Source of the DNA: a virus
Taxonomy: Duplodnaviria; Heunggongvirae; Uroviricota; Caudoviricetes
DNA length: 4,692 bases
Strand: one strand, 5' to 3'
IMG/VR virus record: IMGVR_UViG_2778261344_000007
Coordinates: 1 to 4,692 of that record
Shown: in pieces, positions 1 through 4,692 of the stretch
How positions within the stretch are numbered: the first letter of the stretch is position 1
Layout of the letters: each line of letters opens with the position of its first letter
Notes under the pieces: generated by a model
What the model saw: the letters and a program-made list of their open reading frames with translations, nothing else
Database searches by the model: none
What the model was told of the DNA's origin: nothing
Position numbers and translations under genes: made by a program

Positions 1-53
1 CTTGCCCACTCGTTATATTTTTCCGCATTAATGGCTTTCTGTGTATTTAACAT
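1..53 (-). CDS. hypothetical protein, 5' end only (17 codons; gene runs off the window start)
   Basis: Minus-strand ATG at 51-53 preceded by GGAGG (plus 61-65, read as CCTCC) with a 7-nt spacer. Frame stays open to position 1 (MLNTQKAINAEKYNEWA...). Too short to name. Confidence 0.4.
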   Translation of the reverse strand, partial: MLNTQKAINAEKYNEWA

Positions 54-158
54 AAATATACCTCCAGTTAAGGATTAAATTTTATTTACAGTGCTGAACT
101 TAATTATTCAGATTTGGATTATGCTTTCTCTTCACGAAGTTCCGATTGTTAATTTGGC

Positions 159-581
159 TCACAACAGCACCTTCTGAAAATTACCCTGATAGAAAGCCAG
201 TACACGCTGCATAGCTTCGCTCTTCCGGCACTCGCTACAGATTATGTTCAGACGCCTGTCGTAGCGGCGTATTTCTCCGTCTGGTAATGACCAGATAAGA
301 TCCGGATCAACCACAACCGGTTTCTTCACCTTTGCCCTTGATAGTTTTTTGCGGGCGTTTTGCCAGTCTTTACGCGCCTGCTCAGACGGGAATAATCCGT
401 AGCCTGAATTGTAAACATCACCACTGGCGACCAGTTCTCTGGCGAGAGTGCTTATGTAATACCTTGATGCACCGGTTTTAGCCTCCAGAGCCCGTAACGT
501 CTCGCGACCGCTCAGACGTACAAGTTCAACAACCTGCCCTTTAATTTTTTCCCGCTCTTCTGGTGTAAATACTTTTGCCAT
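159..581 (-). CDS. Ren-like protein, 140 aa (N-terminal winged-helix-like region, C-terminal ECRKSEAMQRVLAFY motif)
   Basis: ORF-track frame 159..596; start placed at ATG 579-581 because GGAGG lies 5 nt upstream (plus 587-591). The C-terminus ...CSECRKSEAMQRVLAFYQG resembles my recollection of the phage lambda Ren C-terminus (...KECRQSAAMKRVLAVYG). Position distal to the replication genes matches lambda ren. Recollection not verified by search. Confidence 0.7.
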   Translation of the reverse strand: MAKVFTPEEREKIKGQVVELVRLSGRETLRALEAKTGASRYYISTLARELVASGDVYNSGYGLFPSEQARKDWQNARKKLSRAKVKKPVVVDPDLIWSLPDGEIRRYDRRLNIICSECRKSEAMQRVLAFYQGNFQKVLL

Positions 582-596
582 AGGTGCCTCCGGCAA

Positions 597-1358
597 TCAC
601 TTTTCCGACACAATACGACTGGAGGAATCGAAAATCTGTCGAACAATATCCCGGTGCTTGTTCAGCTCCCGCAGCGCGGCGCAGACTCGCTCCCACTTCT
701 GGACATGATTTTTCGCCCGACGCAGTTCGCGGTTTGCCATATGCAGCGATGGTAAAACCAGGTCATCCGCTCGCGTTTCAGTAAACGATGGCAGCGACTG
801 CACAATGTCCGCCACCGTTTCTGTTTTAATATCTTCCTGTGTTGCAGCCTCCTGTACTGGTAACGCAACACCTGTGGGCTGAGGAAAGGCCTTACCATCA
901 GTTTCCGCTACCGATGCTGCTTTCGGCTCTGCTGGTAAATTATCGCCCGGTATGCAGTAACGAAATTTACCGTTCTGGTTTACGCGAATCAGGCGTCCTT
1001 TGCTGATAGCCATTGCCAGCGTTGAAGCTACTTTGCGTGATGTGGTACCGAACAATGTAGCCAACTCATCCGCCGTTTGTGGGCCACGTTGTTCAATCGT
1101 CGCGGTTAAATCGCACTCTGAGATTTTCGCTACTGTTGCCATGGTGGTTTCTTCCGGCAGCTCTGCCGGCGCTGGCTGTTCCTGCTGAACGTTGTTATCA
1201 GCCACGCGCCAGGTGTATACGCTTTTATCAACGAAGCCAGCCTTTTTCAGTTCCCACAGCTCGTTCAGCACTTCTTCTCGACTGATATCAAGTCGCGTAG
1301 CCAGTTCTACCGACGTGGCTTTTCCCATCGCTTTCAGTGCGTCAAAAACGGTCTCCAT
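597..1358 (-). CDS. prophage protein with two winged-helix-like domains, an acidic/Pro-rich linker and a basic helical C-terminus (DUF1627-like), 253 aa
   Basis: ORF-track frame 597..1409; start placed at ATG 1356-1358 (METVFDALK...) because GGGAGG lies 8 nt upstream (plus 1367-1372), whereas the longer start at 1409 has no RBS and would overlap ydaV by 29 nt. Two HTH-like segments are readable ([30 protein letters not shown] and [32 protein letters not shown]). Family assignment is from memory. Confidence 0.75.
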
Positions 1359-1380
1359 TAAAATTTCCTCCCGGTAAAAA

Positions 1381-2127
1381 TTACTTCTCAATACCTGGCT
1401 GACCAACATTCGGGCGCCAGCTCTCCCAGTTAAAATTCACCCAGCGCCCGCCGTTCATGGTCATGCGATCCATAATCCGCTCGCCGAGCAATGTTTTCAT
1501 GGCCTCATAGTTCAGGTTTGTCAGCATCCCCACGCTGCGCATTGACGCTGTCCGGCGATCAACAATCTGGTGCAGTACCACCTGCTCGTTTTTCGTCTCG
1601 CGCTGAATACCAATTTCATCAAGAACCAGCAGATCAACTTCGCACAGTTCCCGCAAAAATTTTTCGCCTGACTGCCCGTCGTCATAGCTGGCGTGCAGGG
1701 CGCTCATAACATCAGCCACGGTAACCACAATCACTGTCTGGCCATCTTTCAGCAGGCGATTCCCGATAGCCGCCGCCAGATGGTTTTTTCCGGTACCAGG
1801 TTTTCCGCTGAACGCGAAATTTGTGCATCCGGTAACCAGTTCGTCAGCGATAGATTTCGCCTGACTCAACGCGTATCGCTGGCCGTCGTTCTGCACCTGG
1901 TAATTCGCAAACGAGCATTTGCGGTGCAACGGCTGTATGCCGGAGCGATTCAGGATTTTTTCCACCCGCAACTGACGATTCTGACGGTTGATCTCCTCAC
2001 AACGTTTCTGGCCTTCTGCAAGTTGCCACTCGCGCCACTCCGCCACCGTCCTGAATGGCGCGGTTACATGTGGCGGGGCCAGTCTGCGGATACGTTCCAG
2101 AACGCCGCCTGTCGCAATATTTTTCAT
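1381..2127 (-). CDS. ydaV: DnaC/IstB-like AAA+ ATPase, putative replicative helicase loader (lambda P analogue by position)
   Basis: 248-aa ORF with Walker [12 protein letters not shown] and Walker [10 protein letters not shown] readable in translation. ATG 2125-2127 with AGGGGG upstream; starts 6 nt after the ydaU stop. Length and context match Rac prophage YdaV as I recall it. Confidence 0.88.
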
Positions 2128-2133
2128 GGTCTG

Positions 2134-2922
2134 TTACCCCCTGAAGCCTGGCGGGATCGCACTGTCCGGAAACGAGACGGTGTTAATCTGTCGGAGCAAC
2201 GTCTCTGGCCGAACACCTTTCGGCGCGAACAAGCCCTGGTATTCATTGGCGATGCTGTGTCGAATCACCTGCTCAGGTGAAAAACCCTGCTGGCGGAATT
2301 TTTCCAGCTCCCGTATCGCCCCGTTAGCGCCCTGCTCCGTTCGAATCGGTTTTCGCAATGCCTGCCTGAACTGAACCCACTCATGCCAGAGTGTTTCCGG
2401 CAACCAGTCAGGCAGCTCGATAGCCTCCGGTTCGAATTTTTTAGACGCTCGTTTTTGGCGAGGGGGATTTAGGGGGAGATAAGTATTTATATCTTCCTCT
2501 TTCTCTTCCTCTGGTAACGCTTTTTGATCCGTTTTTGTAACGCTGGCAGCGTTACCTTTTCGTTTCAGTTCTCGTATTTTTGTTACTCTCTCGTTTGTAA
2601 CCGCCCGTTTTTTAGAGCTTTTCCCGTTATGGCGCTCAAAGTTAGGAAGCGACAACACACCATTAGTTTCGACCAGCCATCCAACCTGAATTAACGCATC
2701 AGCAAAACCAGCCATAAAAGTGATGCGATCTATTGCACTTTTTGTAACGCCGCGAGCGTTACACTCTGCGTTACCGTCTATCATTTGTTGATCCGCCCAT
2801 GCCCAGAAGCGAATGACTTTCCCTAATGCGGCATCTGGATCAATATTCAGAATCTCAGCAAGCCTGAATATTTCCGGCTTATCCGGCGTAATAACTTCGA
2901 GCTTTATCCAGTTTGAAGCCAT
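2134..2922 (-). CDS. ydaU: putative replication initiation protein, YdaU family (lambda O analogue by position)
   Basis: 262-aa ORF, ATG 2920-2922 with AGGTGA about 7 nt upstream. Two-domain layout with a charged low-complexity linker (KSSKKRAVTNERVTKIRELKRKG...EEEKEED) whose coding DNA carries the palindrome/T-tract cluster. Lies directly upstream of the DnaC-like gene. Symbol assigned by synteny and length class, not by search. Confidence 0.8.
   Translation of the reverse strand: MASNWIKLEVITPDKPEIFRLAEILNIDPDAALGKVIRFWAWADQQMIDGNAECNARGVTKSAIDRITFMAGFADALIQVGWLVETNGVLSLPNFERHNGKSSKKRAVTNERVTKIRELKRKGNAASVTKTDQKALPEEEKEEDINTYLPLNPPRQKRASKKFEPEAIELPDWLPETLWHEWVQFRQALRKPIRTEQGANGAIRELEKFRQQGFSPEQVIRHSIANEYQGLFAPKGVRPETLLRQINTVSFPDSAIPPGFRG
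2514..2622. other. candidate replication origin: cluster of GTAAC/GTTAC half-sites with T-tracts inside the ydaU linker-coding DNA
   Basis: GTAAC at 2514, 2537 and 2597, GTTAC at 2551 and 2582; T4-T6 runs at 2521, 2532, 2557, 2577, 2608 and 2619. Just upstream lie GGGGGATTTAGGGGGAG (2462-2478) and an AT-rich/polypyrimidine stretch (2479-2510). Confidence 0.35.
2536..2556. repeat. palindrome copy 1: TGTAACGC-TGGCA-GCGTTAC (inside ydaU, codons 123-130 GNAASVTK)
   Basis: Arms of 8 bp read directly; the reverse complement matches. Confidence 0.85.
2743..2763. repeat. palindrome copy 2: TGTAACGC-CGCGA-GCGTTACA (inside ydaU, codons 54-61 CNARGVTK)
   Basis: Perfect 8-bp arms, 5-bp centre, read directly. 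Confidence 0.85.
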
Positions 2923-2934
2923 TTGTTTTCACCT

Positions 2935-2955
2935 TGTAACGCTCGCAGCGTTACA
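2935..2955. repeat. palindrome copy 3: TGTAACGC-TCGCA-GCGTTACA (non-coding, ends 2 nt before the ydaU Shine-Dalgarno)
   Basis: Perfect 8-bp arms read directly; located in the 77-bp ydaT-ydaU spacer. Confidence 0.85.
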
Positions 2956-2964
2956 TTTAACTGA

Positions 2965-2986
2965 TACCGAACAAAACAGTTCGGTA
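2965..2986 (-). other. hairpin TACCGAAC-AAAACA-GTTCGGTA in the ydaT-ydaU spacer (8-bp stem, 6-nt loop, no U-tract)
   Basis: Perfect 8-bp inverted repeat read directly; lies between the ydaT stop (3000) and palindrome copy 3. Confidence 0.4.
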
Positions 2987-2999
2987 CGATTAATTTCAA

Positions 3000-3422
3000 T
3001 CAATGCACTACGACAGAATCGCTAGGAGAACCGCCGCCGCTGAAATGTGCTTTACGGTAAACGGCCTGGACTGCATCATCATGCGCATCAATTGCCGTAC
3101 TCAGTGCATCCTGTGCCGCCAGTAATGCACGGCGTTCCAGGGTATCGAAGATGCAGAGTCGGTGACGCAGCTCGCGAGGAAGAATTGCCAGAACCGCAGG
3201 GATCAGTTTCTGAATTTTTTCCCTTTGCGCATTCGTTTCACCTTTCAACCAACGATGATAGATATTCTGCTGATTGTTCCAGTCCTTGCCTGGTACCAGG
3301 GGCAATTCGCCGCCCCCCTGGCGCAGATATTCTTCAGTAATTGCGTTAGCGACCCACGCCTGCCCTTTTTCGGCTGCCAGGGCTAACAACACTGATTCGA
3401 TGTGCTCATGCTTGATTTTCAT
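3000..3422 (-). CDS. ydaT: YdaT-family protein (CII-like regulator of Rac-type prophages; historically annotated as a toxin)
   Basis: 140-aa ORF beginning MKIKHEHIESV..., which I recognise from memory as YdaT of the E. coli Rac prophage (unverified). ATG 3420-3422 overlaps the ydaS TGA 3419-3421 (ATGA coupling); GGGAG lies 7-8 nt upstream. Confidence 0.88.
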   Translation of the reverse strand: MKIKHEHIESVLLALAAEKGQAWVANAITEEYLRQGGGELPLVPGKDWNNQQNIYHRWLKGETNAQREKIQKLIPAVLAILPRELRHRLCIFDTLERRALLAAQDALSTAIDAHDDAVQAVYRKAHFSGGGSPSDSVVVH

Positions 3423-3429
3423 GAATCAA
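3412..3429. promoter_or_regulatory. perfect inverted repeat TTGATT-N6-AATCAA centred on the ydaS stop / ydaT start overlap
   Basis: TTGATT 3412-3417, ttcatg 3418-3423, AATCAA 3424-3429, read directly. A weaker relative (ACGATT-N6-AATCAA, 2986-3003) overlaps the ydaT stop. Confidence 0.4.
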
Positions 3430-3673
3430 CTCCCATCAGCTTTTTCGTAGTAGTTTTATTTCTGCCAATAGTTAAAATTGCATCGGCAGAAAATAATCCG
3501 TTTGATGCATGAGCGATTTTTTCAGCGTAATTTGTTTCGCCGGTATATTCTGTGCGAGGCAATTTACCGTTATCCATCCATTTGTAGATTGCTCTTTGGC
3601 TGACACCACAAACGTCGGCCACAACAGAAACGCGAACAGTTTTGATTACATCTTCAAGTGTTTTCTGGTTCAT
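3419..3673 (-). CDS. ydaS: Cro-like small HTH regulator (YdaS-like), 84 aa
   Basis: ORF-track frame 3419..3745; start placed at ATG 3671-3673 (MNQKTLEDV...) because GAGGGTGA lies 5 nt upstream, whereas the ATG at 3745 has no RBS and sits inside the repressor promoter. HTH-like segment VADVCGVSQRAIYKWMDNGKLP. First gene of the operon, divergent from the repressor. Symbol by synteny. Confidence 0.75.
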   Translation of the reverse strand: MNQKTLEDVIKTVRVSVVADVCGVSQRAIYKWMDNGKLPRTEYTGETNYAEKIAHASNGLFSADAILTIGRNKTTTKKLMGVDS

Positions 3674-3697
3674 ATCACCCTCACAATGTGAACTTTG

Positions 3698-3732
3698 AGT
3701 ACATGCTATAACAGAACTGACAGTACATTCAA
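3698..3732 (-). promoter_or_regulatory. candidate early-right promoter (PR-like) for the ydaS operon: -35 TTGAAT (plus 3727-3732), 16-bp spacer, extended -10 TGtTATAGC (plus 3705-3713)
   Basis: Read on the minus strand; would give a leader of about 25 nt containing the ydaS RBS. The -10 is imperfect (ends in C). Confidence 0.4.
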
Positions 3733-3753
3733 GAGCGAATATCATTGAACTTA
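3717..3753 (+). promoter_or_regulatory. candidate repressor-maintenance promoter (PRM-like): -35 CTGACA 3717-3722, 17-bp spacer, -10 TATCAT 3740-3745; predicted start at or beside the racR ATG (leaderless mRNA)
   Basis: Hexamers and spacing read directly; the -10 ends 7 nt before the ATG at 3753 and no RBS is present. Lambda cI mRNA from PRM is leaderless (established), which gives a precedent. Confidence 0.45.
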
Positions 3754-4172
3754 TGGTTCATGAAGATAAAGCGCGTAAAGAGTTCGCCAGTAGGCTTGCG
3801 CTAGCCTGTGAAAACGCTGGTTATGAACAACATGGAAGGCAGGCAGAAATTGCCCGTCGAATGAAATTAACACCAAAAGCGGTTAGCAAATGGTTTAATG
3901 GTGAAACAATTCCTCGCCGAGAGAAATTAAGGGAATTAGCAACACTCATTGGAACAACACCAACCTATCTTTTGGGAGAGGATACAGAAGAAAGTGGACA
4001 GATACGTTTCTATCAGGAGTTAAATCCAAGACAAAAAATCATCATTGACCTTCTGGACGAGCTCCCTGACAGTGAGACAGATGAACTTTTAAAAACTCTT
4101 GAGGAGAAAAAACAGAAGTACAATGCAATTTACGAAGAGTTAGCACGAAAGAAAAAACAAAAAGCCTCTTAA
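3753..4172 (+). CDS. racR: CI-like prophage repressor, XRE-family HTH with a charged helical C-terminus (RacR-like), 139 aa
   Basis: ORF with HTH segment QAEIARRMKLTPKAVSKWFNGETIPRREKLRELATLIG, divergent from the cro-like gene. No Shine-Dalgarno precedes the ATG at 3753, but a good -10 ends 7 nt upstream. Symbol is positional (racR-ydaS-ydaT-ydaU-ydaV order). My memory of K-12 RacR length differs, so this may be a variant repressor. Confidence 0.8.
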   Translation: MVHEDKARKEFASRLALACENAGYEQHGRQAEIARRMKLTPKAVSKWFNGETIPRREKLRELATLIGTTPTYLLGEDTEESGQIRFYQELNPRQKIIIDLLDELPDSETDELLKTLEEKKQKYNAIYEELARKKKQKAS

Positions 4173-4182
4173 ACCAGCATAA

Positions 4183-4220
4183 ATCCGGTAGCGTCCCCCT
4201 CCGGGTTTGTGCTTCACTTT
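4183..4220 (+). terminator. weak candidate terminator after racR: stem ATCCGG / CCGGGT (4183-4188 and 4201-4206, one G-U pair), 12-nt loop, then T-rich TTGTGCTTCACTTT
   Basis: Hairpin begins 11 nt after the racR stop. The stem is short, the loop long and the T-run interrupted, so this is weak. Confidence 0.25.
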
Positions 4221-4247
4221 ATCCCGTCTCATTTTTTTATACATAAA

Positions 4248-4291
4248 ATGTACTTAAAGTACTTTACAATGATGAACACAAAGTACATTAT
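4248..4291 (+). promoter_or_regulatory. operator/promoter cluster downstream of the repressor (OL/PL-like): inverted site 4248-4262 containing palindrome GTACTTAAAGTAC, direct site GAACACAAAGTACAT 4274-4288, candidate -35 TTTACA 4263-4268 and -10 CATTAT 4286-4291
   Basis: Motif copies read directly. Hexamers are moderate matches with a 17-bp spacer, oriented toward the small ORFs at 4464 onward. Confidence 0.4.
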
Positions 4292-4463
4292 ATACCTACC
4301 AACCCACCCCGCCCCACAGAACGCCGGGCAATACTTCGAGTTACCAGGCAGTGGTCAGGGGTTAAGTAGCCAGCCCGAGGCGTATGAACATGACGGCGGG
4401 ATTCAAATTTTGCAGTGCAGCAGTTAGTTCCGCCACCCGGCGTTAAGGGGAAATGAGGTCAAC

Positions 4464-4616
4464 ATGGATACTATCGATCTTGGCAACAACGAATCTCTGG
4501 TATGTGGCGTGTTTCCCAATCAGGACGGCACATTCACCGCCATGACGTATACCAAAAGCAAATCGTTTAAAACCGAAGCTGGCGCGCATCGCTGGTTAGC
4601 AAGAAACTCCGACTAA
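4464..4616 (+). CDS. small early-left protein, 50 aa (MDTIDLGNNESLVCGVFPNQDGTFTAMTYTKSKSFKTEAGAHRWLARNSD)
   Basis: ATG 4464-4466 with GAGG (4455-4458) 5 nt upstream; below the ORF-track size cutoff. Position corresponds to the small ydaG/ydaF genes next to racR in Rac, but I cannot say which. Confidence 0.6.
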   Translation: MDTIDLGNNESLVCGVFPNQDGTFTAMTYTKSKSFKTEAGAHRWLARNSD

Positions 4617-4627
4617 TGAGGTTGACG

Positions 4628-4692
4628 ATGGAATTTAAAGATTTACCTCCTTCAATCCAGGAGATTGCAGCACACACACTTCGTCATCGTCT
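4628..4692 (+). CDS. small protein, N-terminal 21 codons (MEFKDLPPSIQEIAAHTLRHR...), continues past the window end
   Basis: ATG 4628-4630 with GAGG (4618-4621) 6 nt upstream, starting 11 nt after the previous stop; frame open to the window end. Confidence 0.5.
   Translation, partial: MEFKDLPPSIQEIAAHTLRHR

Follow-up and report, generated by a model that had tools for sequence, protein, structure and literature searches.

A DUF977-family protein related to lambda Ren, encoded next to the replication genes of an Escherichia coli prophage

The window analysed here, a stretch of 4,692 nucleotides from a Caudoviricetes record (IMG/VR IMGVR_UViG_2778261344_000007, positions 1 to 4,692), contains beside its replication genes a small open reading frame that an earlier note, made from the sequence alone, had taken for a relative of Ren, the factor that lets phage lambda escape Rex exclusion. 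The question is whether the protein is related to Ren as a whole or in one segment only, and what it may do for the prophage. The window is 100% identical to E. coli chromosomes, e.g., that of STEC strain 2013C-3277; the prophage is lambdoid, occupies the Rac site beside ttcA in Shiga-toxin E. coli, and carries frameshifted recE and intR and other pseudogenes (RefSeq annotation). The following features were identified, the last one being referred to below as the target.

3753-4172, plus strand: DicA/RacR-like repressor gene, divergent from the early rightward operon
3419-3673, minus strand: Cro-like gene of the early rightward operon, 84 aa by RefSeq
3000-3422, minus strand: YdaT/CII-like gene of the early rightward operon
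2134-2922, minus strand: O-like replication initiator gene (PHROG 2509 “replication initiation protein”, E 3.2e-88)
1381-2127, minus strand: DnaC-like helicase loader gene of the YdaV type (NCBIfam NF009043, E 2.7e-153; PHROG 50)
597-1358, minus strand: gene for a DUF1627 protein, 253 aa by RefSeq (Pfam PF07789, E 4e-101, and weak HTH matches)
587-591, minus strand: Shine-Dalgarno sequence GGAGG, 5 nt upstream of the target ATG, read from the sequence
159-581, minus strand: target coding sequence, 140 aa, DUF977 family, Ren-like (PHROG 142), placed by the ORF list, the sequence, and RefSeq

The target is a real open reading frame. It starts with an ATG at 579-581 and ends with a stop codon at 159-161, and the stop codon of the upstream DUF1627 gene is at 597-599, so that both genes are tightly packed in one operon. 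The ATG is favoured over a TTG at 596 because M1 is invariant among the 12 diverse homologues of the DUF977 alignment, and RefSeq calls exactly this coding sequence (WP_001141110.1, “DUF977 family protein”), with an identical product. On the minus strand, the gene order is Cro-like, YdaT/CII-like, O-like, DnaC-like, DUF1627, and then the target. Longest-ORF starts would extend the DUF1627 gene by 1359-1409, giving a product of 270 aa and an overlap with the end of the loader gene, and the Cro-like gene by 3674-3745, giving 108 aa. The O-like initiator had no match in the Pfam scan; its last 19 residues are weakly similar to the C-terminus of the primosomal protein DnaT (NCBIfam NF002770, E 0.0038). 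In the same prophage, outside the window, the equivalent of the nin region (L002, 6899-10398) contains a cluster of genes for an ATP-binding protein, an O-methyltransferase, and a DNA cytosine methyltransferase, which could be a defence or anti-restriction moron. A lambda tR2-like terminator was sought downstream of the target and not found, and the RNA downstream of the target folds no better than shuffled sequence.

Three copies of the palindrome TGTAACGC-N5-GCGTTACA (2535-2559, 2742-2766, and 2934-2958; chance expectation 0.01 copies) are spaced by ~200 bp and occupy the 5’ part of the O-like initiator gene and the DNA immediately upstream of it. Only loci that share this O-like initiator allele (L002, L010, and L011) have them, and other DUF977 loci lack them; their interpretation as binding sites for the winged helix of the target was therefore rejected, and they are assigned to the initiator or the origin, being probably origin or initiator binding sites, or an operator.

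With respect to its family, the target is an ordinary, typical, and very common E. coli prophage gene that belongs to an already catalogued group. Pfam PF06163 (DUF977, called LygF in phage records) matched it with 98.2 bits against a gathering cut-off of 22.1 (E 5.3e-28), over target residues 1-136 and profile positions 1-134 of 134, i.e., as a full-length match of a typical member showing no difference from the family. Lambda Ren, in contrast, matched no Pfam family. PHROG 142 “Ren-like exclusion protein” is common to both proteins, matching the target over residues 1-138 (E 1.5e-45) and lambda Ren over residues 1-95 (E 1.6e-41). No NCBIfam model matched the target, nor did any of the PADLOC defence-system models at E up to 0.01, and a sequence search of the PDB gave nothing meaningful. 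Copies with 68-97% identity are found in 25 phage records, labelled LygF, DUF977 or Ren-like exclusion protein; the last of these labels is already applied to the family both in RefSeq and in Pharokka-annotated phage records, and a gene in the Salmonella Sdf I region also goes by the name LygF. The family and its link to Ren are already known from PHROGs, RefSeq phage labels, and public databases, and the anti-exclusion reading offered in the earlier note is not new, since RefSeq phage records already say “Ren-like exclusion protein”. A literature search for DUF977, LygF, and “Ren-like exclusion protein” yielded no study of function; apart from the LygF label, the sole DUF977 literature found was a 2009 note that ascribes a winged-helix fold to the family.

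Lambda Ren (J02459, 40280-40570; 96 aa) and the target are about 25-28% identical overall. BLASTP aligned only residues 112-131 of the target with Ren residues 73-92, 12/20 being identical and 16/20 similar (E 9e-7). The likeness to the C-terminus of Ren described in the earlier note is therefore genuine, but target residues 115-133 (CSECRKSEAMQRVLAFYQG) are followed by 7 further residues, so the segment lies near the C-terminus and not at it. When a profile of 12 diverse DUF977 sequences (down to 31% identity) was compared by hhalign with a profile of 13 Ren sequences, the match reached 97.7% probability and E 2.5e-12 over 85 columns (residues 17-135 vs Ren 7-96), so that significant profile matches were obtained with Ren as well as with Pfam. 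Split hhalign runs gave E 4.2e-13 for the C-terminal motif alone and E 1.3e-3 for the N-halves alone (43 columns, with the winged helices in register). The C-terminal segment accounts for nearly the whole profile score, and the N-terminal homology is weak when tested alone. The pairwise likeness seen by BLASTP is confined to the C-terminus. Judged by these alignments, the target is a true distant homologue of lambda Ren.

The protein is divided into the following segments.

390-563, minus strand: winged helix-turn-helix, residues 7-64 (helices 7-24, 29-36, and 40-53; strands 57-59 and 62-64; AlphaFold)
264-383, minus strand: post-wing helix (67-85) followed by a basic disordered linker, residues 67-106 (AlphaFold)
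183-263, minus strand: conserved C-terminal motif YDRxxNxICxECRxSxxMxRVLAFYxG, residues 107-133, common to lambda Ren

Conservation in DUF977 is concentrated in residues 107-131 (Y107, N112, C115, E117, C118, R119, S121, M124, R126, and F130), and N112, E117, C118, S121, M124, and R126 are invariant across the DUF977 and Ren sequences. The earlier note had allowed that the motif could be a common low-information helix of unrelated proteins. This is not the case, because an exhaustive phmmer search of 1.84 billion representative proteins gave only 102 matches, all of them DUF977 relatives, fragments, or chimeras with the motif segment. In several chimeric ORFs (P0276, P0303, P0320, and P0341) the DUF977 motif is fused in frame to YdaT-, initiator-, DnaC-like loader- or DUF1627-like N-termini; these look like internal deletions of the operon in decaying prophages. 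Some lambda-type Ren proteins that adjoin lambda O/P genes (P0138, P0152, P0171, P0177, and the one encoded at L017, 2254-2547) end in RVLAFYRGNFQ, not RVLAVYGVKR, and the DNA 3’ of their genes is unrelated to that of the window; Ren variants with such a DUF977-type tail (AFYRGNFQ) bridge the DUF977 and Ren groups. The DUF977 motif also includes an invariant CxxC (C115, 237-239; C118, 228-230), the first Cys of which is replaced by F in lambda Ren. As there are two cysteines per chain, a metal site at the CxxC would be possible only in a dimer.

The architecture was compared on AlphaFold models, Ren being represented by a homologue 92% identical to lambda Ren (P0127). The target model has a mean pLDDT of 79, with values of 93-97 over residues 11-80 and across the winged helix. 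The linker spans about residues 86-112 (pLDDT <50 for residues 90-99), residues 67-110 have a pI of 10.35, and the C-terminal helices (116-119, 122-131, and 135-139) are predicted with moderate pLDDT (61-77 over residues 111-140). The Ren model consists of helices 3-13, 19-26, and 30-42, a wing (46-60), a short linker, and helices 74-80 and 83-92. A winged helix is common to both proteins, since both models have it, and the “extra N-terminal winged helix” reading of the earlier note is wrong, the N-halves being also alignable as described above. According to the models, the target and lambda Ren are built on the same plan, namely an N-terminal winged helix, a flexible linker, and a C-terminal helix pair. 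The difference in length, which had been put at about 45 residues, is 44 (140 vs 96 aa) and consists of ~10 residues at the N-terminus, where the first helix is longer, the helix 67-85, and the linker; lambda Ren lacks the N-terminal helix extension, the post-wing helix, and the long basic linker, and the stretch of the latter two, gapped in the Ren rows of the alignment, holds most of the absent residues. In Foldseek searches of the PDB the top matches of the target were all winged-helix domains (GntR, MntR, MarR, and AraR), the nearest folds for both models were winged-helix DNA-binding domains (GntR, MarR, ArsR, and MntR), and none had E <1e-3; BFVD and PDB together gave only generic winged-helix matches, all with E >1e-3. 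The target resembles MarR and GntR only over the winged-helix core, about 60-70 residues.

The DUF1627 neighbour, like the target, is a winged-helix protein of the same operon. Two segments of it are winged-helix-like (residues about 21-63 and 101-150), and the second weakly matches PHROG 142 (E 2.7e-4). The DUF1627 protein gives no BLASTP alignment with the target and lacks the C-terminal Ren motif. YdaW of E. coli K-12 is a truncated DUF1627 protein, 95% identical over the first 151 aa (window 597-1358, minus strand; L019, 4753-5313). YdaW of the K-12 Rac prophage was considered as a DUF977 gene and rejected, as it aligns to the DUF1627 neighbour and not to the target; K-12 Rac has lost its DUF977 gene.

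In all loci examined, the gene of the target family immediately follows the replication module, whatever the type of the module: after DnaC-like and DUF1627 genes (the window and Shigella phage 75/02 Stx), after O-like and DnaC-like genes only (L010-L013), or straight after a lambda-O-like initiator gene without a loader (phage HannyBb, L007, L008, and L015). In the early rightward operon of lambda, ren likewise closes the replication block, and the placement distal to O/P-like genes noted earlier was upheld, with the DUF1627 gene in between; lambda ren follows and overlaps a lambda-P-type loader gene, whereas the target follows the DnaC-like and DUF1627 genes. In lambda, O, P, and ren are overlapping and co-translated. 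Growth of lambda ren mutants is poor on Rex+ lysogens, and mutations that suppress this defect are located in O and P. Two-hybrid assays detected an interaction of Ren with RexB in yeast and with both RexA and RexB in bacteria, and the role of Ren, as suspected by the authors, probably concerns replication. Contigs binned as Collinsella and Veillonella MAGs (L006, L007, and L009) contain copies 83-88% identical to the target; the copy on L007 is accompanied by prophage genes of the E. coli type, no other gene was recognised on the short contigs L006 and L009, and all three are very probably mis-binned Enterobacteriaceae contigs.

DUF977-like DNA was found by blastn in 4439 of 5426 complete E. 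coli genomes (82%), in a median of 2 and up to 7 places per positive genome, and lambda-type ren in 2926 of the same 5426. Lambda-type rexAB was present in 99 of the 5426 genomes (2%), always with at least 99% identity, a blastn count that diverged Rex-like systems would escape. With DUF977 in 82% and rexAB in 2% of the genomes, countering Rex is unlikely to be the main selected role of DUF977. No evident rexAB was found in the prophage of the target, so a Rex-related role could act only against other prophages.

These observations have to be weighed against three other readings of the target. It could be a sequence-specific winged-helix transcription regulator, e.g., of nin-like genes or of its own operon, with no link to replication or exclusion. 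Its winged helix is modelled confidently, with DNA-binding domains of GntR, MarR, and MntR as the nearest folds, the protein is basic (pI 9.8), and NCBI gives truncated Ren variants the name “MarR family transcriptional regulator”. However, every match to the Pfam HTH families is below threshold, the curated HTH families giving only Trp_repressor (14.1 bits vs a cut-off of 27) and no MarR or GntR membership; the helix that would serve for recognition is not notably basic, no dimerisation domain like those of MarR and GntR regulators is present, and conservation peaks in the C-terminal motif instead of the winged helix. Moreover, the only strong palindromes of the window, present in three copies, are distributed according to the initiator allele, not according to where DUF977 occurs. 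On balance, we regard a dedicated regulator as unlikely. The pseudogenes of the host prophage would fit a gene that has lost its function and is decaying in a cryptic prophage, but this is hardly credible: the ORF is intact, its ribosome site is strong, and the family is conserved in a patterned way, with invariant residues; furthermore, 4020 genomes have a copy covering at least 80% of the target gene, with a median of 2 per positive genome, and DUF977 is also present in viable phages.

The remaining reading bears on the homology itself: only a C-terminal cassette would be shared with Ren, by mosaic recombination at a module boundary or by joining to unrelated winged helices, and the whole proteins would be neither homologous nor functionally equivalent. 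A pairwise likeness limited to 20 residues, a profile score derived almost entirely from the C-terminal segment, and the many database chimeras in which this segment is fused to YdaT-, O-, DnaC- or DUF1627-like N-termini are in line with such an origin. Yet the N-halves align in register (P about 1e-3), both AlphaFold models have the same order of elements, and the motif is kept in DUF977 members that are only 31-36% identical overall. Recent recombination as the source of the common C-terminus was rejected, since the motif-region DNA is only about 65-70% identical to lambda ren or to ren of the AFYRGNFQ type, with scattered differences and no shared downstream DNA, which speaks for protein-level conservation and not recent exchange. 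A mere exchange of the C-terminus thus seems quite improbable.

The best explanation, with a probability of about 0.6, is that the target is a small basic two-part protein of the Ren/DUF977 family, co-expressed with the replication proteins, which through a putative partner-binding motif would keep replication going under exclusion. It builds on the homology to Ren, the shared architecture, the conserved position, and the prevalence, and is weakened by the restriction of the BLASTP likeness to 20 residues, the weakness of the N-terminal homology alone, and the moderate C-terminal pLDDT. In this scheme, the protein would be made together with the prophage replication proteins from the early rightward operon, its N-terminal winged helix being tethered by the flexible basic linker to a C-terminal helical motif of ~25 residues. 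The motif would be the working part and probably binds a partner, which would be a conserved one at the replication complex; the winged helix may hold the protein on DNA or on another protein. The most likely role of the target is that of a small adaptor whose expression accompanies that of the replication genes. By analogy with lambda Ren, it may protect phage replication from exclusion, sustaining it against a resident system such as RexAB. The ubiquity of the family suggests a more general accessory role of DUF977 in replication, of which Rex resistance would be one visible consequence.

A bolder proposal is that the ~25-residue motif is a portable docking peptide through which, in most E. 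coli strains, the replication modules of prophages would engage one conserved partner (e.g., the initiator, DnaB or a RexB-type membrane protein), replication thereby being shielded from abortive infection. We consider it a long shot; if it were true, DUF977 would amount to an unrecognised factor of very wide distribution, acting in counter-defence or in replication licensing, and its invariant CxxC might form a metal-bridged dimer, a feature without counterpart in Ren. Apart from that, the comparison shows Ren to be the short form of a much larger DUF977 family, which some four-fifths of complete E. coli genomes contain, and makes the C-terminal motif a clear target for mutagenesis. The prevalence and position of the family argue that its main job is tied to replication generally, and not to the rare RexAB.
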